From the NCBI GenBank assembly GCA_038889235.1, contig JAWAHN010000001.1, positions 631,459 through 695,458 on the forward strand: a DNA stretch of 64,000 bases. The letters are read 5' to 3'. The translations under genes were made by a program, and so were the position numbers. Positions 1 through 56,213 of this stretch are shown here, piece by piece. How positions within the stretch are numbered: the first letter of the stretch is position 1; each line of letters opens with the position of its first letter. The notes beneath the pieces are model-generated. The model was not told where the DNA came from and did no database searches. It was given only the letters and a program-made list of their open reading frames with translations. The stretch comes from Candidatus Jordarchaeales archaeon (GTDB lineage: Archaea; Asgardarchaeota; Jordiarchaeia; Jordiarchaeales; Freyrarchaeaceae).

Positions 1-138
1 GGAATGAGGAAGAAGCTTTTCGCCGCTATTGAAGCACTAAAAATTGGAGTACCTACCGTAGTGATATGTAACGGGGCCGCGGAAAATTCTGTGGTTAAAG
101 CCGCTAGGCTGGAACATGGAACGGTGATCACTAAATGA
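1..138 (+). CDS. 3' fragment of an amino-acid kinase family gene (acetylglutamate kinase ArgB / LysZ-like), truncated by window edge
   Basis: Frame 1 reads ...GMRKKLFAAIEALKIGVPTVVICNGAAENSVVKAARLEHGTVITK*, stop at 136-138 overlapping the ATG of the next gene; resembles an ArgB/LysZ C-terminus; context is the arginine/lysine cluster. Confidence 0.45.
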   Translation, partial: GMRKKLFAAIEALKIGVPTVVICNGAAENSVVKAARLEHGTVITK

Positions 139-1217
139 TTAACGCTATAGAGTTTCTGAAGGAGCTCTTAGAAATACCAAGTCCTTCGGGAAGTGAAGGT
201 GAAGTTGCCCTTTTCCTTTCGAAAAGATTGGATAAGTGGGGGTATCACGTAGAAGTTGACCGTGCTGGGAATGTTGTGGCCCAGTTGGGCGAGGGGGAAC
301 CGGTATTACTTCTGGCTTCACATTTGGACACAGTTCCGGGACACTTTCCAGTGAGGGAGGAAGGGGGCAAAATATTTGGTAGAGGTGCTGTCGACGCTAA
401 AGCATCCGTTGCCGCTATGGCTATAGCCGGAGTGGAGGCGGCCCGCTCAGAAATAAGGGGGAAGATAGTGTTTGCAGGAATAGTGGAGGAGGAAACAAGT
501 CTTAGGGGTATTCAAACACTTCTTGAAGAGCTCCCAAGTATCAATTACGCTATTTTCGGTGAGCCGACGGGAAAAAGCAGGGTTTGTTTAGCTTCCAAGG
601 GAAGGTTATTATTAAAAATAGATGTACGAGCCACTGACAGCGGCCATGTGGCTTGCTCTTGGAGGTATAAGAATGCCATCGAAGAAGCCTTTAATCTTTG
701 GACCCTGTTGAAGAAAGAGCTTTCGAAGATGGGGGGCTCATATTTTTCATCCACAATACCTAACTTGACCATTTTTCAGGGAGGCAACGCCCCCAACATT
801 ACTCCTGAGCAGTGTTCGTTCTATGTGGACGTTAGGTTTCCGCCAGGCATGAACTCAGCGCAACTTTTGAAAGTTAGTGATGACGTAATAGAAGCTTTTA
901 GGAAAAGCAGCGGTTTAAAGGTCGATTACAACATTTTGAGCCAAATAGAAGGATTTAGAACTAGCAAGCAAACTGTACTTGTGGAAGCGTTAGTGCGAGC
1001 GATAAAAGAAGAGTTAGGAGAAGAAGCGAAATTTATTAAGAAGACAGGGACATGCTTCATGAACCTGATAGGAAAACACTTCAATGTCCCAGTTGTTTGT
1101 TACGGTCCAGGAGACCCTGCACTTGAACATTCTCAAGAAGAAAGCATAGATGCGGAGGAATACTTAGCAGCAATAAGGGTATTGACTAGAACGATATGCT
1201 ATGTATTGTCGAACTAG
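135..1217 (+). CDS. M20-family metallo-deacylase (acetylornithine deacetylase ArgE / [LysW]-lysine hydrolase LysK-like)
   Basis: 360 aa; N-terminal LLEIPSPSGSEGEVA, HLDTV and GRGAVDAKA motifs typical of ArgE/DapE/LysK M20 peptidases; start overlaps stop of upstream kinase-like gene. Confidence 0.8.
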   Translation: MINAIEFLKELLEIPSPSGSEGEVALFLSKRLDKWGYHVEVDRAGNVVAQLGEGEPVLLLASHLDTVPGHFPVREEGGKIFGRGAVDAKASVAAMAIAGVEAARSEIRGKIVFAGIVEEETSLRGIQTLLEELPSINYAIFGEPTGKSRVCLASKGRLLLKIDVRATDSGHVACSWRYKNAIEEAFNLWTLLKKELSKMGGSYFSSTIPNLTIFQGGNAPNITPEQCSFYVDVRFPPGMNSAQLLKVSDDVIEAFRKSSGLKVDYNILSQIEGFRTSKQTVLVEALVRAIKEELGEEAKFIKKTGTCFMNLIGKHFNVPVVCYGPGDPALEHSQEESIDAEEYLAAIRVLTRTICYVLSN

Positions 1218-2200
1218 ATTATCATTAATAAGACCGCTTTTTGAACATGTAACCTGTTTTCAGCTTCGTCGTAAATTACGGAGTGAGGACCGTCGATTAC
1301 GCCATCAGTAGCCTCCACGTTTCTCCGTATAGGGAGGCAGTGCATAAAGATCGAGTCTTTCTTGGTCAAACTCATCAAGTACTCGTTGCATATCCAATCT
1401 CGAAACTTAACACGCAGCTTTTTCTCTTCTTGCGGGTTACCATAATACTTTAGCGAGCCCCAAGATTTAACATAGACGACATCAGCTCCATCGTATGCCT
1501 CTTCAACGTTGCTCGTAACTTCTAGGCTGCCTCCAGATTCTTCGGCGTTCTTTTTCGCCCACTCCATGATCTGCTGGTCGAGCTCGAAGCCTTCGGGGTG
1601 GAGAAGCGTAACGTCCATCCCGAAACGGGTTGAAATTAAGAGGGCTGAGTTTGGAACACTGCACGGGAGAGGGTTGGGGTGGTAAACCCAGCTTAAAAGG
1701 AACTTTTTTCCATGAGGGTCTCCCTTTTTCTCTATTATCGTCATTATGTCTGCTAGCTCTTGGCATGGGTGGAACATGTCGCATTCCATGTTTATTACCG
1801 GAACGTCAGCCCACATGGCGAATTCGCGTACAACCCGGTTGCTTTCCCCATAGCGCCACCCTGTCACGTTAGGAAATATTCTTATTGATATAGCATCGCC
1901 GTAGCGGGCCATAACGGAAGCAGTATCTTTTATTGACTCTGACCCTCTACCAATCCAACCAGACTCAGCTTCCATGTAGACCGCATGACCGCCTAGCTGT
2001 GTCATCCCTATTTCGAAAGAAAGGCGGGTTCTAGTGCTCGGATTAAAGAAAAGCATAATCAACGATTTTCCTCTGAGAGCGTCAGAGTAGCTTTGAGGCC
2101 TCTTTTTCACATCAAATGCCAGTTTTAGGGTATCTTCTATTGCTTCGAGCTCCCATTCTTGTGTTGTTATGAGGTCTTTGCCTTTCAAGTCGCTTCTCAA
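1214..2200 (-). CDS. Carbamoyltransferase of the OTC/ATCase family (ornithine carbamoyltransferase-like, atypical central region)
   Basis: 328 aa; STRTR carbamoyl-phosphate motif, HPCQ and HCLP motifs; central segment diverges from canonical ArgF. Confidence 0.75.
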   Translation of the reverse strand: MRSDLKGKDLITTQEWELEAIEDTLKLAFDVKKRPQSYSDALRGKSLIMLFFNPSTRTRLSFEIGMTQLGGHAVYMEAESGWIGRGSESIKDTASVMARYGDAISIRIFPNVTGWRYGESNRVVREFAMWADVPVINMECDMFHPCQELADIMTIIEKKGDPHGKKFLLSWVYHPNPLPCSVPNSALLISTRFGMDVTLLHPEGFELDQQIMEWAKKNAEESGGSLEVTSNVEEAYDGADVVYVKSWGSLKYYGNPQEEKKLRVKFRDWICNEYLMSLTKKDSIFMHCLPIRRNVEATDGVIDGPHSVIYDEAENRLHVQKAVLLMII

Positions 2201-2257
2201 AATAACACCGCCTCGGGCCCCATGGTTACCTGAAGGAAAAATTGAGTCACTTTAAAT

Positions 2258-2611
2258 TCAGTCCATAACGCACCTCTCTATCATTCCACTTTCCTCAAGA
2301 CGCTTAACTATTTGATTGTACTTAGCCTTGTTGTTTAACATTTCATTTATTGCTTCTTCGTTTATGTGTGTTCCGGGCTTCACTTTAACTTCGACGTCTA
2401 CTCCAAGCTTATCCTCTAACACCTTCTTTATTATGACTCCTATGATGCCACCCATAGGACACATGGAAGATGTCGGGGTAAACACCACAGTGACCTTGTT
2501 TCTTTCTACTGTTATGTCATCTTCGCTAACTATTCCTAGGTCGACAACTGACATGGGTAGTTCTGGGTCGCTTACCTTCTTTAAAACTTCGAGAACATCA
2601 CCTTTGTTCAT
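2258..2611 (-). CDS. DUF59/MIP18-family Fe-S cluster assembly protein
   Basis: 117 aa; N-terminal VLEVLKKVSDPELPMSVVDLGIV and conserved Cys (SSMCPMGG) typical of the DUF59 (SufT/PaaD-like) family. Confidence 0.65.
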   Translation of the reverse strand: MNKGDVLEVLKKVSDPELPMSVVDLGIVSEDDITVERNKVTVVFTPTSSMCPMGGIIGVIIKKVLEDKLGVDVEVKVKPGTHINEEAINEMLNNKAKYNQIVKRLEESGMIERCVMD

Positions 2612-2659
2612 GTCGTTTCCACCAAATTCCTTTTCAAGACGAATGAGGGGGAATAGAAT

Positions 2660-3901
2660 TTAAACGTTTTCCCCCACTTTTCGCCTAGGTAAAAAACACC
2701 GTTCAAACTCGCCTAGCAATTCCCTGACACTTTTCCCCGTTGCTTCGGACACCTTCCTTAGATCCTCGAATTCCGGCTTAACTCTAAGCACTCTGCCCTG
2801 TTTATCCCTCGCCACTTTCACATTAATAGGGTACCTCTTCCCTTCGACCTCAAGATCAAAAGTAATCATCTCTTTTTCTAAAATTAGCCTTTTGACTTGA
2901 TGAAGACGCACACCTAAAGTTCCAGTCTCCTTGATTAATTTTTCCGCTATGCTGGTATAGTTTTCGGGTGTACATATGACTTGTAAAATGCATCCTGGTC
3001 TCCCTTTTTTCGCGATGGTAGGTATGATAGTCACGTCTCTTGCTCCAGACTTTAGAAGCAATGTTGAAACGTGGGCGATCACTTCTCCTGAAATGTCGTC
3101 TACGTTTGTCTCGACAACAACCATCTCTTCCTCGTATAGTGAAGAAGTGTTGCCAATTATCACTCTAAAAACGTTCGGGAGGTCGGCTAAATCTCGCTCT
3201 CCAGCCCCATACCCCGCTTTTATAGGCGTAACTGGTGGCATCACGCTAAACGGTTCTGCTTTCAACGCAGCAAGTATTGCTACACCTGTCGGTGTTGCAA
3301 GCTCACAGTTAGATAAGCCAGCCAGCATAGTCATCCCGGCTTCCCGCAATATCTCAACAGTTGCAGGGGCGGGTATTGGCAGTGAACCGTGGGATGATCG
3401 AATTACGCCACATCCGACTGCTACTGGGCTAGTAAACCACTTTGCATCAAGTAAACCGAGCTTTTCGCACATGAGTGCAGCACCCACTATGTCAAATATA
3501 GTGTCTGCTGAGCCAAGCTCATGTAGATGTACTTCTTCGACGTTTTCGCCATGAACCTTCGCCTCCGATTTAGCGAGAAGGAAGGCAATGCTGGTTGCCA
3601 TGTTCAGAGCACGCTTTGAAAGTGAGAGTTCTTGAGCAGTTTTTTCAACAAAATCCAGTAATTCTTTACCAGTAAAGCCTTTCTCTTCCTTAACGAAAAG
3701 GGAGACTTTCGTAGCCGCGATATCTTTTCGCCTAACTTTTTCGACTCTAACTTCAGCTTCCGAACATTTATTTACTACTTTAGGTAAAACACTAGCCAGT
3801 TCTTCGAGTTCACTCCACTCTCCACACAAGTCGACGAGCGCACCCAAGAACATGTCACCGGAAACACCAGCAATGGACGAATCGGCTATAGCTATTGACA
3901 C
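2660..3901 (-). CDS. larC: LarC-family nickel insertion protein (DUF111; pyridinium-3,5-bisthiocarboxylic acid mononucleotide nickel chelatase)
   Basis: 413 aa; N-terminal SGDMFLGALVDLCG motif and overall DUF111 architecture; adjacent to LarB-like gene. Confidence 0.75.
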   Translation of the reverse strand: MSIAIADSSIAGVSGDMFLGALVDLCGEWSELEELASVLPKVVNKCSEAEVRVEKVRRKDIAATKVSLFVKEEKGFTGKELLDFVEKTAQELSLSKRALNMATSIAFLLAKSEAKVHGENVEEVHLHELGSADTIFDIVGAALMCEKLGLLDAKWFTSPVAVGCGVIRSSHGSLPIPAPATVEILREAGMTMLAGLSNCELATPTGVAILAALKAEPFSVMPPVTPIKAGYGAGERDLADLPNVFRVIIGNTSSLYEEEMVVVETNVDDISGEVIAHVSTLLLKSGARDVTIIPTIAKKGRPGCILQVICTPENYTSIAEKLIKETGTLGVRLHQVKRLILEKEMITFDLEVEGKRYPINVKVARDKQGRVLRVKPEFEDLRKVSEATGKSVRELLGEFERCFLPRRKVGENV

Positions 3902-3904
3902 TTT

Positions 3905-4705
3905 TCACCCCCCGGGTATTTTTTCTCTAAACATTGCTGCCCTGTTAGCTATCAAAGCCGCGATTACGCCTGCTCCAACCCCGTTGTCAATGTTAACAAC
4001 GGCGACTCCGGGAGCGCATGTTTGAAGCATCGTGAAAAGGGCGCCAACGCCGCCTCCTCCAAACCCGTACCCCGTGCTTGTTGGAACACCTATTACCGGA
4101 AGGTTCACGAGTCCTGAAACTACGGAGGGGAGCGCGCCCTCCATTCCAGCGACAACAACTATTACATCTACCCCGTTTCTGACCATGTCGGCAAGCGGCT
4201 TAAATACTCTGTGAATTCCTGCGACCCCAACGTCATAGGCGACGTAAACTTCGCACCCCATACATCTTGCAGTTAGCCTGACTTCTTCGGCTACAGGTAT
4301 GTCTGCTGTACCTCCGGTTAGGACACCTACCTTTCCGCCGGTCTTAGTCAGTTTGTAATCCGGCCTCCTGACGTAAATAGTTCCAGTTTCTTCTATCACT
4401 TCTAGCGAAAACATGCTCTCCGGAAACTCTTTTCTTAACAAGGACAACTGTTCCTCGTTGCACTTGGTTACAATAACGTAACCTTTCTCTTCAACAACTC
4501 TTCTAGCGATCTCAACAAGGTACTCTTTTCGCTTACCTTTAGCATAAACAATTTCCGGCGTACTCGAGCGGAGCTCCCTCTTCACGTCTATCTTGGCGAT
4601 ATTACCAACTTCCAGTATTTGAAAGAAACGAATTGCCCTTTCAGCTTCATCTAAGCTAATTTCGCCTTTAACTAGCTTCTCGAGGATCTCCCTTAACTGG
4701 CTTAT
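3905..4705 (-). CDS. larB: LarB-family PurE-like protein (nickel-pincer cofactor biosynthesis carboxylase/hydrolase)
   Basis: PurE-like core GGKVGVLTGGTADIPVAEEV...VIVVVAGMEGALPSVVSG preceded by a LarB-type N-terminal region (SQLREILEKLVKGEISLDEAERAI). ORF track begins at 4855, but that extension would swallow the divergent promoter; a GGAGGGAG motif is followed 6 nt later by in-frame ATA (4705-4703), giving 266 aa. Start is uncertain. Confidence 0.65.
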   Translation of the reverse strand: MSQLREILEKLVKGEISLDEAERAIRFFQILEVGNIAKIDVKRELRSSTPEIVYAKGKRKEYLVEIARRVVEEKGYVIVTKCNEEQLSLLRKEFPESMFSLEVIEETGTIYVRRPDYKLTKTGGKVGVLTGGTADIPVAEEVRLTARCMGCEVYVAYDVGVAGIHRVFKPLADMVRNGVDVIVVVAGMEGALPSVVSGLVNLPVIGVPTSTGYGFGGGGVGALFTMLQTCAPGVAVVNIDNGVGAGVIAALIANRAAMFREKIPGG

Positions 4706-4740
4706 AGCACTCTCCCTCCGGCCGGGCAGGACGTGATGGC

Positions 4741-4750
4741 TATTTAAATA
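4741..4750. promoter_or_regulatory. Palindromic TATA-like element (TATTTAAATA) in the divergent larB/queC intergenic region
   Basis: TTTAAATA matches the archaeal TATA consensus on both strands; lies between the inferred starts of the divergent genes. Confidence 0.35.
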
Positions 4751-4797
4751 TCTCAACGATAATACCTTAAAAGTGTAGTGCGCTGGAGGGGAATAAT

Positions 4798-5544
4798 ATA
4801 CAGGCAAAGATCGGAGTAGTCCTTTTAAGTGGAGGGTTAGATTCGACGGTAACATTGTGGTGGGCTAAGGAAAAAGAAAGATATAGTGAGATACATACTT
4901 TAACGTTCCTTTACGGTTCCAGGGAAGAAAAAGTCGTGAAAAAGGTTTGTGAAAGGCTGTCTTCTCTTTCCGGGGCCAAGAAACAAGTCTTCCTAGAGTT
5001 ACCTTGGCTCAAAGAGTTCTCCGCTAAAGCTGGAACAGCTTTGATAGAAGGAGGTAACCTGCCACCTAAATTAACTATTCAAATGCTTGATGATAAAAGT
5101 GCTGTGAGAGAGACGTCTAGGAGTGTTTGGGTTCCGGCGAGAAACCTTTGCTTTATAGCTATAGCTGCGGCGTATGCAGAGACGTTAGGTGGTGAGATCG
5201 AAATAATTACAGGCTTTAATAAAGAGGAGGCTGAAACATTCCCCGACAACTCTCTTACCTTCACTGAAAGAGCGAACGCGTTACTTGAAACGTCAACTCT
5301 CAAAGCTAGGGTCTCCTTAAAAACTCCTATTATACATCTCAACAAGAAGGAGATATGCGTGTTAGCAAAGTCGCTCAATGTCCCCGTTGAGTACACAAAC
5401 TCCTGCTACAACCCAATCGGCATAACTGAGGACGGGAAACCCATTCATTGCGGCGTTTGTGAGAGCTGCACGAGGAGGAGACGTGCTTTCTTGGAAGCCA
5501 TAGGTTCAGACCCTACTATTTACGCTTACAATCAAACGACTTAA
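4798..5544 (+). CDS. queC: 7-cyano-7-deazaguanine synthase QueC (PP-loop ATPase)
   Basis: C-terminal zinc motif HCGVCESCTRRRRAF typical of QueC; the PP-loop SGGLDS (KIGVVLLSGGLDSTVT) is in frame upstream of the track start (TTG 4855) with no ATG/GTG/TTG before it; GGAGG at 4785-4789 followed by in-frame ATA at 4798. Start is inferred. Confidence 0.7.
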   Translation: MQAKIGVVLLSGGLDSTVTLWWAKEKERYSEIHTLTFLYGSREEKVVKKVCERLSSLSGAKKQVFLELPWLKEFSAKAGTALIEGGNLPPKLTIQMLDDKSAVRETSRSVWVPARNLCFIAIAAAYAETLGGEIEIITGFNKEEAETFPDNSLTFTERANALLETSTLKARVSLKTPIIHLNKKEICVLAKSLNVPVEYTNSCYNPIGITEDGKPIHCGVCESCTRRRRAFLEAIGSDPTIYAYNQTT

Positions 5545-5661
5545 TTAGTAAAACAGGATTGCAGCCCAGAAAAAGCGGATTAGAACTCATAAAGAAATTT
5601 GGGAGTTGGAAAAACAAGGAGACATGGAAGCTTTGCAGTGTAAGCGCATATCTTAGGTAAA

Positions 5662-7008
5662 TTATGCCGTTCCTTCTCTCCACCCTCTGAGGTATGCCAT
5701 TTGTTCCTTCGTGAGTTGTTCTAACTCTATTCCCATGGCCTTGCACTTCAATTCCGCCACGGTCATGTCTATTTCCTTTGGTATGTCGAGAACCACGTTT
5801 CCTAACTTCTTAAGCTCGTCTCTGTGTTTAACAATCCATTCAACAGCTAAAGCTTGGTCGCTAAACGACATGTCCATAACAGAGCTGGGGTGTCCTTCAG
5901 CAGCGACAAGGTTTACTAGACGACCTTTACAGAGCAAGTATATTCTCCTTCCATCTTTTAGCCGATACTCTTCAACATTAGGCCTTATTTCTTCCTTGCT
6001 TACAGCCAGACTTTCTAGGTCCTTTAAGTTTATTTCGACGTCAAAGTGCCCTGCATTAGCAAGTATGGCGCCATCCTTCATTTTTTCGATGTGCTCCTTT
6101 CTTATAACGTCTTTGCAGCCAGTAGCCGTTATGAATATGTCCCCCACTTCTGCGGCTTTGTACATCGGCATCACGTCTATACCTTCAAGCGCAGCGGTAA
6201 GCGCTCTATGTGGGTTTATCTCTGTTACTATAACTCTCCTAGCGCCTAAACCTTTAGCCCGCAAAGCGATCCCGCGGCCGCAATGTCCGTATCCGGCAAC
6301 CACAACCACTTTTCCTGCTATTAGTTCAGAAGTCGCTCTCATTATTCCGTCGAGTGTTGACTGGCCAGTCCCCCACACGTTGTCAAATTCCCACTTGGTA
6401 GGGGTATCGTTCGTTGCAAGTATGGGGTACGGCAATTTCCCCTCTTCAGCCATGGCGCGGAGCCTTATTACTCCCGTAGTGGTTTCCTCGGCGCCACCCC
6501 AAACGTTACTCCACCAGTCGCCTCCTTCTCCCAGCACTTTCTTAACTATTTTTATTTCTTCTCCGCCTTCCTTGTGCTTTAGCTTGGCTATCGTAGAAAC
6601 TAAGTCAGCCCCGTCGTCCAGCGTCACGTTTGGCCGGGCTTTTATAACGTTCGCTATAGACCTATAGTAACCTTCAGTGTCCATGCCGTACCAGGCGTAA
6701 ACACCTATTCCATGCTTAACTAGGGCAGCCGCTACAGGGTCTTGTGTTGAGAGCGGGTTAGAAGCACAAAGGTAAACGGTTGCTCCTCCTGCTTGGAGTG
6801 TTCGAACTAAAACGGCAGTTTCTTTCGTTACGTGCAGACAAGCACCAACTACCACGTTTTTAAGTGGTTTTTCTTTCTCGAAACGCTCCCTTATCATTTT
6901 TAAGACTGGCATGTGGTCTTCTGCCCATCGAATGAGTTTTTCTCCCTGCGACGCGAGGCCTATGTCTTTTATCTCGTAATTTTTTCCAACCTGAGTCATC
7001 ACGTCCAC
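5662..7008 (-). CDS. ahcY: S-adenosyl-L-homocysteine hydrolase (adenosylhomocysteinase)
   Basis: 448 aa; NAD-binding GYGHCGRG motif, conserved N-terminus (YEIKDIGLASQGEKLIRWAEDHMPVL); possible ATG start at 6999. Confidence 0.9.
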   Translation of the reverse strand: MDVMTQVGKNYEIKDIGLASQGEKLIRWAEDHMPVLKMIRERFEKEKPLKNVVVGACLHVTKETAVLVRTLQAGGATVYLCASNPLSTQDPVAAALVKHGIGVYAWYGMDTEGYYRSIANVIKARPNVTLDDGADLVSTIAKLKHKEGGEEIKIVKKVLGEGGDWWSNVWGGAEETTTGVIRLRAMAEEGKLPYPILATNDTPTKWEFDNVWGTGQSTLDGIMRATSELIAGKVVVVAGYGHCGRGIALRAKGLGARRVIVTEINPHRALTAALEGIDVMPMYKAAEVGDIFITATGCKDVIRKEHIEKMKDGAILANAGHFDVEINLKDLESLAVSKEEIRPNVEEYRLKDGRRIYLLCKGRLVNLVAAEGHPSSVMDMSFSDQALAVEWIVKHRDELKKLGNVVLDIPKEIDMTVAELKCKAMGIELEQLTKEQMAYLRGWREGTA

Positions 7009-7049
7009 CTCTCTCTGCTAAATTTTCAAGGAGTTTTAAATTTGTTGGT

Positions 7050-8741
7050 TTACGCGATTCTTCCCTCTTCTAGTGCTTTTAATTCGGCCTGTATCTCTTC
7101 TTCTGTGATCTTTCTGAATAATGGTTTCGGCTGCTTGATCAAATGTCCAGGTTTTATGTTGAATCTCTTCGCAGATTCCCAGTTTTGTAGCTTAGTGTTA
7201 AGCATCTCGAAAAGCTGCTCCATGGATGTGGGGATTACAGGGTAAAGGCAGGTTGCCGCCGAGTAGAGGAAGTTCACGCAAATGTAGAGCGTGGTTGCAG
7301 CATTTTTTTCTTCTCCTTTTTTCATGGCGTCCCATGGTGCTTTGGCTGTAAAATAGCTGTTTGCTTTTTTGAACGTCTCGACTATGCGCCGTATAACTTT
7401 TGAGAAGTCACACTTTTCATACTCTCTTTCTACTTCTTCGACCATTTGCATGAAAGTTGAGGTGAAGTCTTCGTCTTGTTCATCTGTCTCGCCTGGTTCT
7501 GGGACCCTCTTTTCGAACCATCTGGAAATGAATGACAAGACACGGTGGGTGAAGTTTCCTATGTTGTCCACCAGATCTCCGTTCACTTTGTTCATGAACT
7601 CGGCCCAGCTGAAGTCGTTGTCGCTAATGTTGTTGGCTACTTTTGAGGCTAAATAGAAGCGGATGTAATCCGCGGGGAACTTATCGAGGACGCGTTTGAG
7701 GGGGACGAACCACTTCCTGCTCTTACTCATTTTCCGTCCTTCGAGCGTAAGATAGCCATTTATAACATACTTCCCTGGGAGGGTATAACCTCCAACACCC
7801 ATTAGCATTGCAGGCCAGAAGAGGAGGTGGTGGTATATTATGTCTTTGCCTATGAAGTGAGTTATTAGACAGTCCCCCATCCAGTAGTCCTTCCAGTCCC
7901 GCCCGGTTTTTTTACTCCAGTTAACCGTCGAAGCGATGTAACCTATGGGGGCATCAAACCACACGTACACATATTGGTTGTCCTTGGCGTCCTCATAAGG
8001 TAACTTGAAACCCCAGTAGTCCTCTCTCGTTATATCCCAATCTTGTAATCCAGACTTGATCCATTGGACAACATAATTAACAACTTCCCTGGAGAGTTCA
8101 TCGCTGCTTTTAGATTCCATCCATTCGAGCAACCTTTGTGAAAAGGCACTCAGCTTGAATATGAAGTGTTCTTCAGTCCTGATAGACGGAGGAGAACCGC
8201 ACACAACACAACGCGGTTCAAGCATCATGCCGGGTTCTATCGTTCTTCCGCACAATTCACAAGCGTCGCCGTACTGGTCTTCTGCTCCACAGTACGGGCA
8301 CTTGCCTTTGATCATACGGTCGGGTAGGTACATTTTGTCTGTCTCACAGTAGAAAAGTCTAACTTCTTTCTTGTAGATGTACCCGTTTTTTCTCAATTTT
8401 AGCAGGAATTCTTCTGTTAGCTTCCTGTTTTCCTCACTGTGAGTTCTGTGATAGTTATCAAAGCTTATGCCAAGTTTCTCCAAATCCTCTATTTGGCGTT
8501 TTCTGTAGTATTCGACGTGTTCTAGAGGTGTGTGACCTGCCTCTCTAGCTGCAACCGATATGGGGGTTCCGTGCTCATCGCTTCCGCAAACAAAGACTAC
8601 ATCTAATCCCTTGATCCTACAAAAGCGGGTGAAAATGTCTGCCGGTATGTAAGTGCTAAAGGCGTGGCCGAGGTGAAGGTCGGAATTAGCATATGGTAGC
8701 GCTGCTGTAACCAGCACTCTGCGCAACTTAGATCCCTCCAA
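7050..8741 (-). CDS. metG: Methionyl-tRNA synthetase
   Basis: 563 aa; class I HLGH and KMSKS motifs, zinc knuckle CPYCG...CELCG; a likelier start is TTG at 8726 preceded by GGAGGG. Confidence 0.9.
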   Translation of the reverse strand: MEGSKLRRVLVTAALPYANSDLHLGHAFSTYIPADIFTRFCRIKGLDVVFVCGSDEHGTPISVAAREAGHTPLEHVEYYRKRQIEDLEKLGISFDNYHRTHSEENRKLTEEFLLKLRKNGYIYKKEVRLFYCETDKMYLPDRMIKGKCPYCGAEDQYGDACELCGRTIEPGMMLEPRCVVCGSPPSIRTEEHFIFKLSAFSQRLLEWMESKSSDELSREVVNYVVQWIKSGLQDWDITREDYWGFKLPYEDAKDNQYVYVWFDAPIGYIASTVNWSKKTGRDWKDYWMGDCLITHFIGKDIIYHHLLFWPAMLMGVGGYTLPGKYVINGYLTLEGRKMSKSRKWFVPLKRVLDKFPADYIRFYLASKVANNISDNDFSWAEFMNKVNGDLVDNIGNFTHRVLSFISRWFEKRVPEPGETDEQDEDFTSTFMQMVEEVEREYEKCDFSKVIRRIVETFKKANSYFTAKAPWDAMKKGEEKNAATTLYICVNFLYSAATCLYPVIPTSMEQLFEMLNTKLQNWESAKRFNIKPGHLIKQPKPLFRKITEEEIQAELKALEEGRIA

Positions 8742-8887
8742 GCAACGAAAGTAAAACAGGCAATTAAATATTACACTCAGAGGGGTTTTGCTTTAACTTT
8801 CAACCTTCAAGCATCTGATGAAGGACAAAATGCCCATTAACCTTTTAAACCCGTCTGTGTGGAGTAGTATTCTGAAGGGGATGTATC

Positions 8888-9292
8888 ATGCCTAAAGAAT
8901 TCACATATAGAGGGTACACACTGGAAGAGCTCCAGAAAATGCCAATGGATGATTTCATAAAACTGTTGCCTGCGAGACAGAGGAGAAGCTTGATCAGAGG
9001 GTTACCACCACGCCACAAGAAGTTATTGGAAAAGATAAGAAGAGCGAGGAGAGCGCTTAAAAAGGATAAGAAAGTCATTGTGAAAACACATAACAGGGAC
9101 CTCATAATCCTGCCGGAAATGGTGGGACTAACCATTGCAGTGTACAACGGTAAGGAGTTTGTACCAGTAGAGATAAGGCCTGAGATGATCGGCCATTACC
9201 TCGGAGAGTTCGCCCTAACGTGCAAAAGAGTCGTACACGGTGCTCCAGGGATTGGAGCAACGCGTTCATCGATGTACGTTCCACTTAAGTAA
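8888..9292 (+). CDS. rps19: 30S ribosomal protein uS19 (S19p/S15e)
   Basis: 134 aa; C-terminal [33 protein letters not shown] typical of archaeal/eukaryotic uS19. Confidence 0.85.
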
Positions 9293-9341
9293 GGCGCTGC
9301 TGCCGTCCCGAATTTTCGTAGAAGACGTGCTAGCTTGTTCT

Positions 9342-10502
9342 TTACATTCCTATTTTTGAGAGGGTGTCCATACTTCGTACTTTTCCCACTAATTTTGAAA
9401 CCCCAGGGTCAACTCTCCTCAAGAGGGCTAAATAAAACGCTTGCCACTCTAAAGGTACTGCGTACAGTGGAGGGGAGAGGAAGTTTTCTATAATGCCGTC
9501 TGGGAATGGTATTTTTTCGTCGATCTCCTGAGGGGAGACTTCGAGTATTTTCTCTGTTCCCGCATGTCGCATCCAAAGGTGTTTAATGAACTGGGAGGTT
9601 TTCAGAGATTTTGCCTGGTTTGGGGGCTTAAGTATTATGAGCGGTTTTTTGTCTCTGTTCTCTTCCTCAAGCGTCTCGATTAACGAGTGCACGAATTCCT
9701 CCATTCTTACGTCACAGGCATCTGCTTTGACTCCTTCCATAAGCATTATGAGCGCGTGCTTTCTAGCTATGGGATATCTTGGCCCGTCACCCATCACATA
9801 GAACATTTTGTCAACGTACTTGAACCCCCACTCTGCCGCACTTTTACCCCACTCGAGTACTTTGTCAGACTTACTTAATTTGTCAATAAGGTCAGGTATA
9901 GTCTTGGTCTGCAATTCCAACGCTTTTTCGATTTCGGCATCACGCTGAGAAAAAGCAAGCAGTTCCAGCAAAAGGATGTTTAGAAGCGCTAGGGTAGCGT
10001 GAAATGTTCCAGTTGAGGGGAGAGGTTTCTCAGGGTACGGTTTAGTTCTAGTTCTAACGACAAAACCCCCCTCCTCCTCCAAGTCGAGAAGCGAGCGCCC
10101 AGAAGGCCTTTCCCACCTGTTGGTTATAGCCACGCACGTACTACCTCTCGAAAGGCAGAGTTCCATAGCGTCTAAAGTGTCTTTAGTAGTCCCAGACTGG
10201 GAAAGAAGTATGGCGAGAGTATTTCTTCCAACCCACTTTGGGGGGTTGTCCGCCAGTGTTCTGGCGTGCAGCGTTTTTATCGGTATTTCAGAAAAATGCT
10301 CCCAAAGGTATTCTGAAATCATAGGTATCAGATACTTATCTCCCGCACCCGTCATCAAAATGTTTTTGAACTTGACACTTCCAGCAATTTCCAAAATAAC
10401 TTTGTAACTTTCCTTTATAGATTGTTTAACGCTCTCTCCCTGAAGTAAGATGGCCTCTTTCATGCCTGTTGAGTCAAGTTTTTCAAGTTCTCCCCAATCC
10501 AA
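9342..10502 (-). CDS. SIS-domain sugar-phosphate isomerase family protein (two SIS-like halves)
   Basis: 386 aa; SQSGTT phosphosugar-binding motif; architecture like GlmS isomerase domain / PGI-PMI family. Confidence 0.6.
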   Translation of the reverse strand: MDWGELEKLDSTGMKEAILLQGESVKQSIKESYKVILEIAGSVKFKNILMTGAGDKYLIPMISEYLWEHFSEIPIKTLHARTLADNPPKWVGRNTLAILLSQSGTTKDTLDAMELCLSRGSTCVAITNRWERPSGRSLLDLEEEGGFVVRTRTKPYPEKPLPSTGTFHATLALLNILLLELLAFSQRDAEIEKALELQTKTIPDLIDKLSKSDKVLEWGKSAAEWGFKYVDKMFYVMGDGPRYPIARKHALIMLMEGVKADACDVRMEEFVHSLIETLEEENRDKKPLIILKPPNQAKSLKTSQFIKHLWMRHAGTEKILEVSPQEIDEKIPFPDGIIENFLSPPLYAVPLEWQAFYLALLRRVDPGVSKLVGKVRSMDTLSKIGM

Positions 10503-11791: not shown

Positions 11792-12785
11792 ACGCGTACT
11801 AGTGACTGGTGGTGCTGGTTTTATAGGTTCTCACATAGTCGACAAGTTAATTGAGAATAACGAAGTCGTAGTGCTCGACAATCTTTCAAGCGGAAAAATC
11901 AGCAACATACAACACCACTTAGGACGTGAAGGGTTCACTTTTATTAAGGGAGATATTCTTGATAAGGACACTGTTAAAGAAGCCGTTAAAGGAGTGGACG
12001 TAGTTATACATCAGGCGGCCGTGGTTGGTGTTAAAAAATATGTCAAGAATCCTCTGAACGTGCTGACCACAAACATTTTCGGGACACATAACTTGATAGA
12101 AGAGAGTCTTAGAGAGGGCGTGGAAAGGTTCGTTTTCGCATCAACAAGCGAGATCTACGGTAAAAATGAGAAGGTCCCATTCAAGGAGGATGGAGACAGG
12201 GTTCTTGGGGCGACAAACATTGCAAGGTGGTGTTATTCAACTTCTAAAGCTGTGGACGAGCACTTCCTTTTCGCGTATTATGAGACTTATGGTTTTCCAA
12301 TGGTTATCCTGCGTTATTTTAACATATACGGGCCTAGGCAGGAAACCAGTGATTATAGTGGAGTCATACCAATCTTCATTAGGAGGGTCTTGAGCGGCGA
12401 GCCGCCATTGATTCATGGAGATGGCAAGCAAACTAGAGCTTTTACATACATCACGGATGCTGTGGAAGCTACGGTGCTAGCTGTTAGCAACAAGAGTGCT
12501 GTGGGAGAAGCTTTTAACATTGGGAGTAAAGAAGAAGTCACAATAGAACAACTTGCATACATGATTATAGAACTTGCAGGCAACAATTCAATTAAGCCAA
12601 AGTACATACCTTACGAAGAGTTCTACGGAAAGAGCTACGAAGACGTAAGGCGAAGAGTGCCGGATGTGGAGAAAGCCGAAAAAGTGCTCGGATTTAGAGC
12701 GAAGATACCTTTACGCGAAGGACTTAAGAAGACAATAGAGTGGTACAAAAGGTCCTTGCTTAGCGGCTCGGATATGATTCAGTAA
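11781..12785 (+). CDS. NAD-dependent nucleotide-sugar epimerase/dehydratase (SDR family)
   Basis: 334 aa; VLVTGGAGFIGSHIVDKL Rossmann motif and YxxxK catalytic dyad region; overlaps upstream gene by 11 bp. Confidence 0.85.
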   Translation: MKGKRVLVTGGAGFIGSHIVDKLIENNEVVVLDNLSSGKISNIQHHLGREGFTFIKGDILDKDTVKEAVKGVDVVIHQAAVVGVKKYVKNPLNVLTTNIFGTHNLIEESLREGVERFVFASTSEIYGKNEKVPFKEDGDRVLGATNIARWCYSTSKAVDEHFLFAYYETYGFPMVILRYFNIYGPRQETSDYSGVIPIFIRRVLSGEPPLIHGDGKQTRAFTYITDAVEATVLAVSNKSAVGEAFNIGSKEEVTIEQLAYMIIELAGNNSIKPKYIPYEEFYGKSYEDVRRRVPDVEKAEKVLGFRAKIPLREGLKKTIEWYKRSLLSGSDMIQ

Positions 12786-12987
12786 TCTCCTTTAATATTT
12801 TCAAGGTTTCCTCGGCTTCTTCTGGCCTAATTTTTTCGATCGCATATCCCGTATGAATCATTACATAATCGCCAACTTTAACCTCGTCGAGCAAGGTAAT
12901 GTATGCTTCCCTAGTTACCCCCCCAAAGTCTACTAGCGCTTTTTCGCCACGAATCTCCAAAACCTTCGCTGGAACGCCGAGGCACAT
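12760..12987 (-). CDS. hypC: HypC/HupF-family (NiFe-hydrogenase maturation chaperone-like) small protein
   Basis: Internal start gives MCLGVPAKVLEI..., the signature N-terminal Met-Cys of HypC; about 75 aa; track ORF is N-terminally over-extended. Confidence 0.6.
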   Translation of the reverse strand: MCLGVPAKVLEIRGEKALVDFGGVTREAYITLLDEVKVGDYVMIHTGYAIEKIRPEEAEETLKILKEITESYPSR

Positions 12988-13041
12988 GAGGGATTCCCCT
13001 GGGGAGAACTTTCTAGTAACTGGGAGGGCATTCGGTGGCAT

Positions 13042-14907: not shown

Positions 14908-15690
14908 ATTTCAGGGAAGAATCACGACGGAAAAATATTTCTCTTAGACCTTGACGGAACGCTTGGCTTGTCGTTGATACCCGAAGAGGACGCGATACTG
15001 GAAACGCTCGACTTCATAGCCAGTGAAGTCGCCAGACGTTTTAACAAAAAAATTGATAGGGGTACTTTGTACGACTTGTACGTGGAAACGAAAAAGGAGC
15101 AGTATCGCTTATATCCCCTCAACCCGAAGAGACATGACAAAAACCTAAGATGGGAGATGCTACTCAGGAAACTGGGAGAGAAATTGGGTTGCAAGATATC
15201 CGAGGAGCTTTTTGAGGACGTCAAGAAAGTTTACTGGAATCTCTTCGAAAGCAAAGCCAGGCCTTATCCAGATACACATGAAACGCTAGAGAAACTCATG
15301 GAGAAATTCAATGTAGTCATAGTCACCAACAACGATTATGCAGAAGCTAAGAAGAAGATTAAGCTATTCGGATTAGAGGAAGGAAAACACTACGACGTTT
15401 TGGTTACATCGGAGGATTTTAATGTTTGCAAGCCTTCACGAGAGTTTCTCGAAAAACTTATCCCATTCCTCGAGGAGAAGCTAGGGCGGAGGGTAAAGCC
15501 CGAGCACATAGTCGTGGTTGGAGATGACCCTATAAATGACATAGCTTGGGCTAAAAGCGCTGGGCTTAAAGCGATAAGAGTTAAAAGGGACCTTTTGGCG
15601 CCACGTGAACCTAACAATGAGAAAGAGAAAGCAGATTACGATATAGAAAAACTTTTTGAGCTGCTAGAAATTTCTGAAAAAATCCAATAA
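14908..15690 (+). CDS. HAD-superfamily hydrolase
   Basis: HAD motif I FLLDLDGTL lies in frame upstream of the track start (TTG 14968) with no ATG/GTG/TTG before it; C-terminal VVVGDDPINDIAWAKSAGLKAI (motif IV). Start inferred at ATT 14908 (9 nt after GGAGG) or ATA 14935. Confidence 0.65.
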   Translation: MSGKNHDGKIFLLDLDGTLGLSLIPEEDAILETLDFIASEVARRFNKKIDRGTLYDLYVETKKEQYRLYPLNPKRHDKNLRWEMLLRKLGEKLGCKISEELFEDVKKVYWNLFESKARPYPDTHETLEKLMEKFNVVIVTNNDYAEAKKKIKLFGLEEGKHYDVLVTSEDFNVCKPSREFLEKLIPFLEEKLGRRVKPEHIVVVGDDPINDIAWAKSAGLKAIRVKRDLLAPREPNNEKEKADYDIEKLFELLEISEKIQ

Positions 15691-29256: not shown

Positions 29257-30225
29257 CTATTGATGCCTGAAGTGTTCGTAACCTCTCCAATTGACCTTGA
29301 TCCACCCCTTTTCAGGGTGCTTGAATATTATCTCGTTTTCAGACGTCACGCGTCCTATTCGATGTAATGAGCCACCGGCCTTTTCTATAGCCTTCACAGC
29401 CTCGCCCCATTTTGCTTCTGGTATTGTGACAACTAACTCGTATTCTTCACCTCCGTAAAATGCAAGCTCGTAGGGATCCAGTCCATTTCTTTGAGCGAAA
29501 AATAGAACTTCAGGTGGAATGGGAACAGTTTCTATGGAGAAACCAACATTGCTTGCTCTCGCTAATTCATGGAGGGATACGGCCAGCCCGTCGCTACTAT
29601 CTATGCATGAGGAGGCATAACCTCCCTTGGCAAGGACCACTCCTTCTTTCACCCTAGGTTCAGGCTGGTATACTGCTTTTAAACAGCGTTTTCCTTCATC
29701 CCCCGCCTCTAATCCTTCAAGAAGTATTTTTAGCCCAGCTGCTGTTAGTCCGAATGGACCTGTCACTGCAACGACTTCGCCTGGCTTAGCTCCCGTTCTC
29801 GGTATAAATCTTTCAGTCACGCCTAACACCGCGCCGGAGATGACAACCTCGTCAGACTCGTTAACGTCTCCTCCGAGGTAGTGCGCTCCGTAGAAATTAG
29901 AGGCTTCCTTTATTCCACTAGCGATTTCAAGAGCATCATCCACTTTAAACCATCTTGGAAGACCAAAAGCATAAAGTCCACCTATGGGTTCAGCTCCCTT
30001 GGCAGCTAAATCGCTTAAATTCATCGCTACGACTTTCCATCCCACCTGTTTCCAGGTCATTCCTGGGGGGACGTCTGTTCTTGCAACGAGCATGTCCGAG
30101 CTGAAAACCAGTGTTACATTGCCAAGTTGGATTACCGCAGCGTCTTCACCATAAGAGCGTTCATCGTCTATGAAGGCCAGAAGTTGTTCAACCAGTTTTC
30201 TCTCACCTAACCTACTCAACTCCAT
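29257..30225 (-). CDS. thiL: Thiamine-monophosphate kinase ThiL (PurM-like)
   Basis: Internal ATG start gives MELSRLGERKLVEQLLAFIDD...GEDAAV, the typical ThiL N-terminus; the track's N-terminal extension would run through the adjacent tRNA. Confidence 0.75.
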   Translation of the reverse strand: MELSRLGERKLVEQLLAFIDDERSYGEDAAVIQLGNVTLVFSSDMLVARTDVPPGMTWKQVGWKVVAMNLSDLAAKGAEPIGGLYAFGLPRWFKVDDALEIASGIKEASNFYGAHYLGGDVNESDEVVISGAVLGVTERFIPRTGAKPGEVVAVTGPFGLTAAGLKILLEGLEAGDEGKRCLKAVYQPEPRVKEGVVLAKGGYASSCIDSSDGLAVSLHELARASNVGFSIETVPIPPEVLFFAQRNGLDPYELAFYGGEEYELVVTIPEAKWGEAVKAIEKAGGSLHRIGRVTSENEIIFKHPEKGWIKVNWRGYEHFRHQ

Positions 30226-30754
30226 AAAATAAACACCCCACCTAAGGAGGGCGAGAAGAAAAAATAAATTTCGCGAAAAAGATGGCGAAGAGCACACTTA
30301 GTAGCTTAGCTGTTCAACTTTCTGCGGAATTTAACAACACACAGTGCAAGGCACACATCTTTGTGGCTGTTCGGTCGACATACTTTTCCAGCAGTCTACT
30401 GAAAGCCTAGAACTACCACCACTCACATTCAGCTACGCGCCTAAGTCACTTTGCTAGCGTAACAACCGCCAGTTCCGATTCGTCATCTCCTCTAAAGACT
30501 CACAATACTCTATCGCAGCTTTTTTCACTTCACCAGAAAACTTGTACAAATCTTCCAGTAAATTACTGGCCACGCACTTAACGGCCCCCTTTAACTTTTT
30601 CTATTTCAAGCGTATCTTGAAACACTCTTTTAAAGAAACGAACAAGAGAACATTCGGTTTCCTGATGATTTTTCAATAGAGAAGTCAGAATTTCCGTTTT
30701 GCCAAGAGAGCCATGTAAAAGACGACAGCTCCTCGACAAAACTTTCTCGTTAGG

Positions 30755-54244: not shown

Positions 54245-55819
54245 ATGGAACTTTTAACTAAGACCCAGGGGGCACCTATTGTGAAAGTGAAAACACCGCA
54301 TGCAGAACTGGAAAAAGTTGACGATAAACCAATAAGAAGCTACGATGAAATAAACGAGAAAATAAAGCGGGGGGACGTCATAGTAGTTACAGCAGAAGAG
54401 ATGGTTAAAATAGTTGAGGAAGAGGGAGTAGCTAAGGCTGCTAAGGAAATAGATGTGGTTACAACGGGAACCTTTGGACCGATGTGCTCGAGTGGGGCAT
54501 TCTTGAATTTCGGTCATGCGGATCCGCCGATAAAAATGGAAAGGGTGTGGATTAACGATGTTGAAGCGTATCATGGAGGAGCAGCCGTGGACTGCTATAT
54601 AGGCGCCACAAAGATGAGCCAAACCAACCCATTTAAGTATGGTGGAGGACACGTAATAGAGGATTTAGTGGCAGGTAAGGAGGTAGAAGTTAGGGCTATA
54701 GCGTACGGCACTGATTGTTACCCCAGGACGCGTATAGAAACCACTGTAACTATAGAAGATCTTAACCAGGCTATTCTTTGTAATCCTAGAAACGCGTATC
54801 AAAGGTATAATGCTGCAACGAACGGACGCGATGAAGTAATATACACATATATGGGGAAATTGCTCCCCAATTATGGAAACGTTACTTTTTCTGGGTCAGG
54901 TTGCCTTAACCCGCTTTGCAACGATCCCGACTATGAAACTATAGGTATTGGTACGCGCATATTTTTGGGGGGTGGAATAGGTTACATTATAGGGGAGGGA
55001 ACTCAGCATAATCCACGCGAGCAATTTGGGACCTTGATGGTTAAGGGAGATCTTAAAAAGATGAGTCCTAGGTATTTGAGGGGGGCGGCTTTCACGAAGT
55101 ATGGTACAACAATGTTTGTCGGGGTCGGTGTTCCCATACCTATTCTGAATCAACGCTTAGCATTGAAAACGGCTGTAAGTGATGACGAGATAACAACTAA
55201 GATCCTCGATTACGGTGTTCCAAGACTTCAGAGACCTGTCATCAGAGAGGTGACATACAGCGAGTTGAAATCTGGGAGAGTGGAACTTAATGGTGAAACC
55301 GTTAAAGTTTCTCCTCTTTCGAGCATAAGCATGGCGCGTGAAATAGCTGAAACCCTCAAGAAGTGGATAGAAAACGGGGAATTCTTCCTTTCAGCTCCTG
55401 TGGAAAGACTGCCTCGAGATACTGTCTTTAAGCCTATGAAAATGACTAAGGAAGTAAAGTACGTTAAGTCTTTTATGAGGCCGGCTGTCACGTGTAGAAG
55501 CAGTAATTCCATAGAAGATGTGGCAAAGATCATAGTTTCTAGGAGCGTCAACCACGTAGTAGTTGTAGACGAGGAGGGCAAATTGGAGGGGATAGTGACG
55601 TCTTTCGACATAACTAGAGCGGTTGCTGAGAAGAAAACAAATCTAGCGGAGATAATAACTAGGAAAGTTATCTCAATAAGTCCCGAGGAACCCATAGAGG
55701 TGGCATCTAGGAAAATGAAGGAGCATGACATTTCGGCACTTCCAGTCATAGATGAGCGGAAGAAGGTGCTTGGCATAATTACTAGTGAAGACTTGTCTAA
55801 GCTGATCGGTGGGGAGTGA
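54245..55819 (+). CDS. Homocysteine biosynthesis protein (DUF39 domain + tandem CBS; L-aspartate-semialdehyde sulfurtransferase family)
   Basis: 524 aa; DUF39-type N-terminal domain with conserved Cys, followed by two CBS domains; partnered with downstream NIL-ferredoxin. Confidence 0.7.
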   Translation: MELLTKTQGAPIVKVKTPHAELEKVDDKPIRSYDEINEKIKRGDVIVVTAEEMVKIVEEEGVAKAAKEIDVVTTGTFGPMCSSGAFLNFGHADPPIKMERVWINDVEAYHGGAAVDCYIGATKMSQTNPFKYGGGHVIEDLVAGKEVEVRAIAYGTDCYPRTRIETTVTIEDLNQAILCNPRNAYQRYNAATNGRDEVIYTYMGKLLPNYGNVTFSGSGCLNPLCNDPDYETIGIGTRIFLGGGIGYIIGEGTQHNPREQFGTLMVKGDLKKMSPRYLRGAAFTKYGTTMFVGVGVPIPILNQRLALKTAVSDDEITTKILDYGVPRLQRPVIREVTYSELKSGRVELNGETVKVSPLSSISMAREIAETLKKWIENGEFFLSAPVERLPRDTVFKPMKMTKEVKYVKSFMRPAVTCRSSNSIEDVAKIIVSRSVNHVVVVDEEGKLEGIVTSFDITRAVAEKKTNLAEIITRKVISISPEEPIEVASRKMKEHDISALPVIDERKKVLGIITSEDLSKLIGGE

Positions 55820-56213
55820 AAAAGTGAAAATGCGAGTTAGGTTTAGCACGGACAAGATTAAGGAAGCGGTTACAGCAGATGTAATCCTGGAAACAGGGGT
55901 GCGTATAAATATACTCAGCGCTATGCTTAACGAGCGAGGGGGAGAAGTGCTGCTTGAAGTGCCAGATGATAAGGCGAAAGAAGTGCAGGATGCTTTCAAA
56001 CGGCATGGTGTGGATGTTGAAGAAGACAGGAAACGCGTGGAAATTCTTAAGGATCGTTGCGTAAATTGCGGTTCATGTTACTCCCTCTGCCCCGTTGACG
56101 CCATACGACTTGACCCGAAAACCTTCGAAATAGACCTAATCAAAGAACTGTGCATTGGATGCATGAGGTGCATCGACGCATGTCCGCTTGAAGCAATAGT
56201 TAGAGTCAAATAG
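55809..56213 (+). CDS. NIL-domain 4Fe-4S ferredoxin (sulfurtransferase partner)
   Basis: 134 aa; N-terminal NIL-like domain and C-terminal CVNCGSCYSLCP...CIGCMRCIDACP; overlaps upstream gene by 11 bp. Confidence 0.7.
   Translation: MGSEKVKMRVRFSTDKIKEAVTADVILETGVRINILSAMLNERGGEVLLEVPDDKAKEVQDAFKRHGVDVEEDRKRVEILKDRCVNCGSCYSLCPVDAIRLDPKTFEIDLIKELCIGCMRCIDACPLEAIVRVK

Follow-up and report, generated by a model that had tools for sequence, protein, structure and literature searches.

A larB-larC nickel-pincer cofactor locus without larE in a clade of Jordarchaeales archaea

Background

As far as we know, biology has a single pincer complex, the nickel-pincer nucleotide (NPN), and its synthesis by three enzymes is generally regarded as universal. 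LarB carboxylates the pyridinium C5 of nicotinic acid adenine dinucleotide and hydrolyses the product to P2CMN (the mononucleotide of pyridinium-3,5-biscarboxylic acid), a PP-loop enzyme of the LarE type converts both carboxylates to thiocarboxylates, which turns P2CMN into P2TMN (the corresponding mononucleotide with two thiocarboxylates), and LarC CMPylates P2TMN and inserts nickel to yield NPN. The lar operon of Lactiplantibacillus plantarum (larA, larB, larC1/C2, larD and larE) combines NPN synthesis with lactate racemase. Here we analyse a lar locus in a stretch of 64,000 nucleotides (henceforth the window) from the metagenome-assembled genome of a Candidatus Jordarchaeales archaeon, of the Asgard group (assembly GCA_038889235.1, contig JAWAHN010000001.1, positions 631,459 to 695,458). 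Its LarB and LarC are homologous to those of L. plantarum and fit the same pathway logic, from LarB through LarE and LarC to LarA; unlike the L. plantarum operon, the locus lacks larA, larD and larE, and its LarC is a single fused open reading frame (ORF) rather than a frameshifted larC1/larC2 pair.

Two further described enzymes bear on the comparison. The LarC of Moorella thermoacetica (PDB 12bi; PMC13510736) has the same two domains, histidine patch and acidic pocket as the window's LarC, at an identity of only about 35-40%. The LarE of Thermotoga maritima is [4Fe-4S]-dependent (PMC9283937), and the LarE of sister Jordarchaeia resembles it in being of the catalytic, cluster-dependent type (SGGVDS and CYYC...C), with a CxxC...C [4Fe-4S] arrangement in place of the sacrificial single cysteine of the L. 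plantarum enzyme; it is this gene that is missing from the window's clade. We conclude that the window probably holds an ordinary but truncated NPN cofactor cluster, from which larE has been deleted and for which the LarE step is supplied elsewhere in the genome.

Results and Discussion

LarB and LarC

Using profiles from Pfam and NCBIfam and structural comparisons against the PDB, we examined the genes that the sequence-only reading had described as adjacent larC (2660-3901) and larB (3905-4705) on the minus strand, with a DUF59 gene (2258-2611) downstream. The ORFs lie at these coordinates and the profiles agree with the assignments. The larC gene begins with GTG 3 nt past the larB stop and encodes a full-length LarC1+LarC2 nickel insertase (CTP-dependent cyclometallase) of 413 residues. 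It scores 378.8 bits against PF01969 and passes the NCBIfam models for both LarC1 (TIGR00299, 167.5 bits, cutoff 90) and LarC2 (NF052512, 123.4 bits, cutoff 50), so that the two domains, each over its cutoff, are present in one protein. This protein matches the full-length M. thermoacetica LarC (PDB 12bi) with 184 bits, and its LarC2 domain matches PDB 6bwo from L. plantarum.

In M. thermoacetica LarC, substitutions of D15, E104, H108, H116, H118, E119, D124, D128, H160 and E187 cut activity (PMC13510736). The first eight correspond, as counted in the alignment, to D16, E113, H117, H125, H127, E128, D133 and D137 of the window's LarC, and the last two are paired by local motif with H171 and E200; R71 of the Moorella enzyme appears as a conservative lysine. 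These activity residues, which make up the histidine patch and the acidic pocket, are invariant in eight Jordarchaeia LarCs.

The larB product scores 249 bits against the LarB equivalog model NF033503 (cutoff 175) and 172 bits against L. plantarum LarB (PDB 7mj0/8soq). The structural alignment spans residues 5-256, including the N-terminal helical extension that precedes the PurE-like domain, and places MLQTCAPG opposite MLNSCASG (MLxxC(A/S)xG). The catalytic cysteine of the L. plantarum enzyme is Cys221. LarB does belong to the PurE/AIRC superfamily (PF00731 match), as would be expected if larB and larC were PurE and DUF111 paralogues without Lar function. We reject that reading and give it almost no credence: LarB scores just 49 bits with the PurE model and at most 49 bits with PurE structures, both LarC domains exceed their equivalog cutoffs with agreeing functional residues, and in relatives larB and larC share an operon with a bona fide LarE gene.

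The region is 99.87% identical in DNA over 15.6 kb to contig JAWBDI010000001.1 (GCA_038822405.1), and the same locus also occurs in a Logan assembly and in GCA_038834185.1. NCBI assigns the identical QueC to Candidatus Jordarchaeales.

The divergent PP-loop gene

A gene at 4798-5544 on the plus strand, divergent from larB, encodes a PP-loop protein of 248 residues from an apparent ATA start and matches the Pfam model of QueC, 7-cyano-7-deazaguanine synthase. The mechanical ORF, starting at TTG 4855, lacks the PP-loop, and the same frame just upstream reads KIGVVLLSGGLDS. Because the SGGLDS PP-loop lies upstream of this first canonical start, we place the true beginning of queC at about 4798, where the ATA aligns with the ATG of locus L026 (MQTKIGVV) and with that of protein P0003.

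The sequence-only reading had called this protein QueC-type and probably not LarE, and our comparisons bear that out. It scores 146 bits against PF06508 (cutoff 22), its PDB matches are QueC structures only, and it is 45-52% identical to the QueCs of Pyrococcus and Thermococcus; with the QueC of Pyrococcus horikoshii (P0041), about 50% identical, it shares the PP-loop, the four zinc cysteines and the conserved columns. It differs from archaeal QueC in its apparent AUA start and in its score with the NCBIfam QueC model TIGR00364, which is 147.8 bits from the ATA, against a cutoff of 150.3 (L007 QueC, 178.9; Pyrococcus QueC, 174.7). There is no match to the LarE model TIGR00268 at E<=0.01. At all 48 of the 48 columns that are at least 90% conserved among 111 other archaeal QueCs the window's protein carries the consensus residue, including SGGLDS (residues 11-16) and the zinc-site cysteines C203, C218, C221 and C224 (C-x14-C-x2-C-x2-C), which are the QueC zinc motif and not the CxxC...C of LarE. 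On this sequence evidence the gene is a canonical archaeal QueC and not a LarE. Since all 48 conserved columns are unchanged, we see no sign of a new QueC function, and we regard queC as a normal enzyme of the preQ0/archaeosine pathway. QueD, QueE and ArcTGT were not seen among the window ORFs scanned.

The queC DNA is identical in GCA_038822405.1 apart from the stop codon (5542-5544), which is TAA in the window and TAT in both GCA_038822405.1 and GCA_038834185.1, where 13 further residues (YLVKQDCSPEKAD) follow. The QueC of relatives ends where that of the window does.

Comparison of larE-bearing and larE-less loci

We read the neighbourhoods of QueC homologues, of LarE homologues and of 80 metagenomic LarC loci. 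One set of Jordarchaeia-type loci has the order larE-larB-larC followed by the DUF59 gene, with the same neighbours, an ornithine carbamoyltransferase (OTCase) gene and a LysW cluster. It comprises L007 (labelled Lokiarchaeia at NCBI), L008-L012, L021-L024, L028, L029 and L032, and has among its members Jordarchaeaceae GCA_038825615.1, GCA_029856435.1, GCA_030587375.2, the closed genome of Freyarchaeum deiterrae (CP147778), a number of contigs from Logan and one from JGI (L032). In every such locus that we read, larE stands between larB and queC or is first in the operon; in L007, L028 and L029 a divergent queC adjoins it. The first gene of the L007 operon (6939-7787, minus strand) encodes a LarE that scores 287.5 bits with TIGR00268 and carries SGGVDS and CYYC...C, as do the sequences P0121 and P0137. 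LarE of the CxxC...C, [4Fe-4S] type heads larE-larB-larC in L007, L008, L009, L011, L021, L024, L028, L029 and L032.

In the window, L001-L006 and L025-L027, larE is absent from the site and queC abuts larB. These loci represent four lineages (the window; L004/L005/L027; L006; L025/L026), and tblastn with LarE found no remnant of the gene at the site. LarC is 57-80% identical within this larE-less group and 41-47% identical to the larE-bearing group; by similarity, the larE-less group is monophyletic, at the level of a family. Because the place between larB and queC is precisely where larE stands in sister lineages, we read its lack as a lineage-specific deletion, and the simplest history would be that larE was deleted once, cleanly, in the window's clade. 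The ancestral arrangement of the class would then have been larE-larB-larC followed by the DUF59 gene, and one clean deletion in a family-level clade would have brought the pre-existing divergent queC up against larB.

QueC and LarE are both PP-loop enzymes that adenylate a carboxylate on an aromatic ring. It could be proposed on that analogy, which comes from knowledge of the two families, that the adjacent QueC moonlights as the sulfur insertase, and queC does lie directly beside larB in every larE-less lineage. We consider this very unlikely. The adjacency of queC to the lar genes is older than the loss of larE, since L007, L028 and L029 have queC, larE and larB together; all 48 conserved QueC columns remain unchanged in the clade; the four cysteines form the QueC zinc site rather than the cluster motif of LarE; neither a LarE profile nor a LarE structure is matched; and in the window's species the start of queC has weakened to ATA.

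Start codons and promoter elements

In eight larE-bearing relatives, larB begins ATG AGT CAG (MSQLR...). The codon aligned with this Met1 is ATA in the window (4703-4705, minus strand), where the mechanical ORF continues to ATG 4855 and 4756 has also been given as the 5' limit of the gene. All four larE-less lineages have ATA (the window, at 4705, L026 and L006) or ATT (L004/L027) at this codon, and all four have GGAGGGAG or GGGGGGAG 3-6 nt before it; in the window the Shine-Dalgarno-like GGAGGGAG (4712-4719, minus strand) stands 6 nt upstream of the ATA. Three of these lineages have an in-frame stop 5-14 codons upstream of this codon and lack any ATG, GTG or TTG in the interval, and the N-terminal helix that follows the ATA or ATT is conserved at the protein level.

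Two other genes in the window show the same pattern. The queC ATA (4798, plus strand) follows a Shine-Dalgarno-like GGAGGGG (4785-4791, plus strand) by 6 nt and stands where L026 has ATG; the Prokaryotic Genome Annotation Pipeline (PGAP) chose ATC 4810. A haloacid dehalogenase (HAD) hydrolase gene (14908-15690, plus strand) has an ATT start (14908-14910) 8 nt after AGGAGGGG, and its catalytic DLDGT motif (motif I) lies upstream of the first canonical start. None of the three genes has a usable ATG, GTG or TTG before its conserved or catalytic N-terminal residues, and in each the ATA or ATT stands 6-8 nt after a strong GGAGG-type Shine-Dalgarno sequence. Initiation at codons other than AUG, GUG and UUG, with a strong Shine-Dalgarno sequence, thus seems to be tolerated in this lineage and conserved for larB. 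Codons of the AUA/AUU type initiate translation weakly; we infer that larB is translated from a weak AUA for which the strong Shine-Dalgarno sequence compensates. The conserved AUA or AUU start of larB and the non-AUG starts of two further genes within these 64 kb point to a systematic problem of gene calling in these Asgard genomes: callers that accept only ATG, GTG and TTG truncate genes or misplace their starts, and thereby lose the PP-loop of QueC and motif I of the HAD hydrolase.

The 92-bp region between larB and queC contains a palindromic TATA-like box, TATTTAAATA (4741-4750). Placed some 40 nt away from the ATA of larB and some 52 nt away from that of queC, it could serve both genes; comparable boxes, AATATTTAAAG and ATATTTAAGT, occur in L026 and L006. 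A search with Rfam found no RNA family in window positions 1-9500 at E<=1, and a scan for sigma-70 promoters and intrinsic terminators, models that are not applicable to an archaeon, gave matches at chance level.

Selection on larB and larC

Comparison of the larE-less lineages with one another shows saturation at synonymous sites (proportion of synonymous differences, pS, 0.61-0.85) and a proportion of nonsynonymous differences (pN) of 0.11-0.30. For the closest pair, L006 and L026, the ratio of nonsynonymous to synonymous substitution rates (dN/dS) of larC is about 0.10. Relative to OTCase, larB and larC show some extra divergence, which is matched by an M20 peptidase control, and there is no excess specific to the lar genes; with the low dN/dS, this control leads us to reject the idea that selection on the two genes relaxed once larE was lost. 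Since the tested catalytic residues are all present and purifying selection is strong, the pathway is, as far as sequence can tell, still used in the larE-less clade.

The same evidence bears on the idea that larB and larC are decaying remnants after the loss of larE, with the non-AUG start of larB as a first step of pseudogenisation. Such decay might be suspected from the missing larE, from the ATA or ATT at which larB starts in the clade, and from the TIGR00364 score of the window's QueC, slightly under the cutoff. We hold it to be highly improbable, given that full-length ORFs have been kept across synonymously saturated lineages at a dN/dS of about 0.1, that catalytic residues are intact and that the strong Shine-Dalgarno sequence before the larB ATA or ATT is conserved. 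Nor is the L006 larB disrupted: its apparent split is a run of N, a scaffold gap, and we reject a frameshift there.

The whereabouts of LarE and LarA

The DNA examined around the lar genes amounts to about 71 kb, that is, the window and 7 kb beyond its start. A tblastn search with verified Asgard LarE found nothing in either part, and no Lar_N/LarA domain was found in the 37 window ORFs scanned with Pfam, which include every ORF of at least 275 residues not already annotated in L001, or in the annotated genes of L001. The absence of LarA and LarE from the window, as first noted from the letters alone, is confirmed by these searches, and the locus is not a complete lar system, neither a LarA client nor a LarE being present in the window or the extra flank.

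We propose that LarB, a LarE-type step and LarC would act in that order to make NPN, and that the cofactor would be passed to a 2-hydroxyacid racemase or epimerase of the LarA family encoded elsewhere. The gene for sulfur insertion would lie outside the 71 kb and would most plausibly be a LarE homologue of a type other than that of Jordarchaeia; larB and larC have stayed under strong purifying selection ever since the deletion of larE. It is common for larE to be unlinked: of the 22 metagenomic larC loci that extend at least 3 kb to either side, 8 have no larE nearby.

Several observations weigh against placing LarE elsewhere in the genome. The protein database samples the larE-less clade well (QueC matches P0001-P0009 come from NCBI, JGI, ENA and Logan), and the 120 best relatives of a Jordarchaeia LarE, each with an identity of 48% or more, include none that could be traced to it. 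Because no LarE of the clade appears among these relatives despite such good sampling, a vertically inherited LarE elsewhere in the clade's genomes seems unlikely. The proposal consequently rests on a more distant homologue, with about 71 kb of genome covered. Every Jordarchaeia LarE whose context we read lies in a larEBC operon. A scan of genome contigs with Asgard LarE returned seven bacterial loci, mostly of Lachnospiraceae, and one of Heimdallarchaeota, and gave no view of Jordarchaeales.

Among proteins of intermediate identity, we rejected as candidates for a relocated LarE P0144, which is on a contig of 33.5% GC from another assembly, P0146 and P0147, which group with Helarchaeota, and P0174, which groups with Thorarchaeota. 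Locus L105 (GCA_016294945.1, 33.5% GC) encodes a LarE that stands alone, without lar neighbours on its 3.5-kb contig, and that is about 60% identical to the LarE of Jordarchaeia; it is a case of unlinked larE in another lineage.

These observations could also mean that synthesis of the cofactor has become independent of LarE, another sulfur-transfer enzyme having taken over the formation of thiocarboxylates after larE was lost; the candidates would be another PP-loop or [4Fe-4S] sulfurtransferase, or a system that uses the retained DUF59 protein. Purifying selection on larB and larC is compatible with this, as is the lack of a clade LarE among the 120 best relatives, and the DUF59 gene has been kept beside larC in each larE-less lineage with a contig that continues beyond larC. 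We nevertheless judge such a takeover possible but unlikely: it draws on absence of evidence over about 71 kb, other lineages commonly have larE unlinked, the 71 kb contain no candidate for a replacement gene, and the DUF59 protein has no ATP-binding or adenylating domain. Still more doubtful, in our assessment, is the fuller proposal that the clade has no enzyme of the LarE family at all, that an unrecognised sulfur insertase carries out the thiocarboxylation of P2CMN, and that the AUA or AUU start sets the expression of the operon; if so, the insertase might be QueC acting on a second carboxylate substrate, or an Fe-S or PP-loop enzyme helped by DUF59. Between a distant LarE elsewhere and something new, the distant LarE is the most likely to carry out the insertion of sulfur.

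Turning to the client enzyme, no LarA-like family is recurrent among the neighbours in the 80 metagenomic lar loci, which makes a LarA out of view the norm for archaeal lar loci. Scanning 105 neighbouring ORFs of 370-520 residues with a crude LarA motif gave no match, a result that does not count as evidence. LarA homologues are reported for 87.5% of surveyed Asgard species (PMC11770544), and as many as 13 D-lactate dehydrogenase genes for Jordarchaeia (PMC9723677), which makes a racemase of lactate or another hydroxyacid, encoded elsewhere in the genome, a plausible client. The published accounts of Freyarchaeia and Jordarchaeia that we examined mention neither a racemase nor Lar genes.

The commonest archaeal layout, among loci L025-L104, has larB divergent from larC-larE. 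Recurrent neighbours of lar genes, named by reading cluster representatives without a profile check, are a cysteine desulfurase (8 loci), a malate/lactate dehydrogenase (7), a CbiO-like ATPase (7), NikR (6) and CbiM (5).

The locus consists of known families throughout, and the related LarE and QueC genes already receive these names in routine annotation. Two features, as judged from the compared sequences, are specific to the lineage: a conserved operon has lost larE while keeping larB and larC, and start codons are non-canonical. We regard the loss as a small oddity of evolution rather than a new system; the larE-less clade is a concrete place in which to ask whether LarE can be replaced or relocated.

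The DUF59 gene

The small gene downstream of larC (2258-2611, minus strand) encodes a DUF59/MIP18 (CIA2)-type protein of 117 residues that scores 49.8 bits against PF01883 (cutoff 23.5). It has the conserved TPT..CP cysteine and a C-terminal extension, GTH..E.A.N..L..K...C. Its best PDB relatives, Drosophila galla-2 (E 1e-13) and human FAM96A (1e-10), are matched over the full length, including this extension. The PF01883 domain is common to MIP18/CIA2 (galla-2, FAM96A/B) and to bacterial DUF59 proteins (SufT, TM0487, PaaD), and the window's protein aligns end to end with the C-terminal extension typical of eukaryotic MIP18; it differs in being a stand-alone archaeal protein with no cytosolic iron-sulfur assembly (CIA) partners in view and in an adjacency to lar genes that is confined to Jordarchaeia.

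In the window the gene starts with its own ATG after GGTGGA, 48 nt past the larC stop, and a T5 run and a TTTAAAG box lie past its stop. The window alone has so short a spacer (48 bp), and there it has no TATA-like box. In larE-bearing lineages the spacer is 141-157 bp, with T-runs and a conserved CTTTATAAGA box, and separate TATA-like boxes are found in the spacers of L004 and L006. In L007, L008, L009, L011 and L021 the DUF59 start has, about 45 nt upstream, a conserved AAAAACCTTTATAAGA(A/C)ACAAACCATTATAGA that resembles an archaeal promoter of the gene's own.

Wherever the contig of a Jordarchaeia-type locus continues beyond larC, the DUF59 gene comes after it, whether or not larE is present; in about 74 other larC loci a Jordarchaeia DUF59 profile detects no such gene, even at E<1. 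The co-occurrence of DUF59 with larBC, raised earlier as a possible check, therefore finds no independent lineages, the adjacency being limited to Jordarchaeia-type loci. The surroundings (OTCase, LysW cluster) are syntenic throughout, and because the whole neighbourhood is syntenic, the adjacency is no independent evidence of function. With an adjacency restricted to Jordarchaeia and a promoter-like element that is usually the gene's own, a functional link to the lar genes is unproven. We infer that the DUF59 protein is a conserved neighbour that would contribute at most Fe-S or sulfur-handling support; a role in supplying the LarE cluster is conceivable and unsupported.

Neighbouring genes

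A LysW-type lysine/arginine biosynthesis cluster (LysW, LysX, amino-acid kinase, M20 deacylase and carbamoyltransferase) flanks the lar genes at 135-2200 of the window and at 13764-15736 of L001, and is syntenic across Jordarchaeia; its carbamoyltransferase rates as an N-acetylornithine carbamoyltransferase (383 bits). A gene of the HypC/HupF family (12760-13041, minus strand) and an AIR-synthase-related gene of the PurM/HypE/SelD/ThiL superfamily (29257-30297, minus strand) may represent further functions in nickel or hydrogenase maturation. At 54245-56213, on the plus strand, a COG1900-type homocysteine biosynthesis sulfur-incorporation enzyme (PF01837, 508 bits) is fused to CBS domains and followed by an ORF of 134 residues. 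Finally, a protein of 1308 residues (58452-62378, plus strand) has an N-terminal TrmB-type winged helix followed by a very long region with weak apolipoprotein-like repeats, which is probably a coiled-coil.

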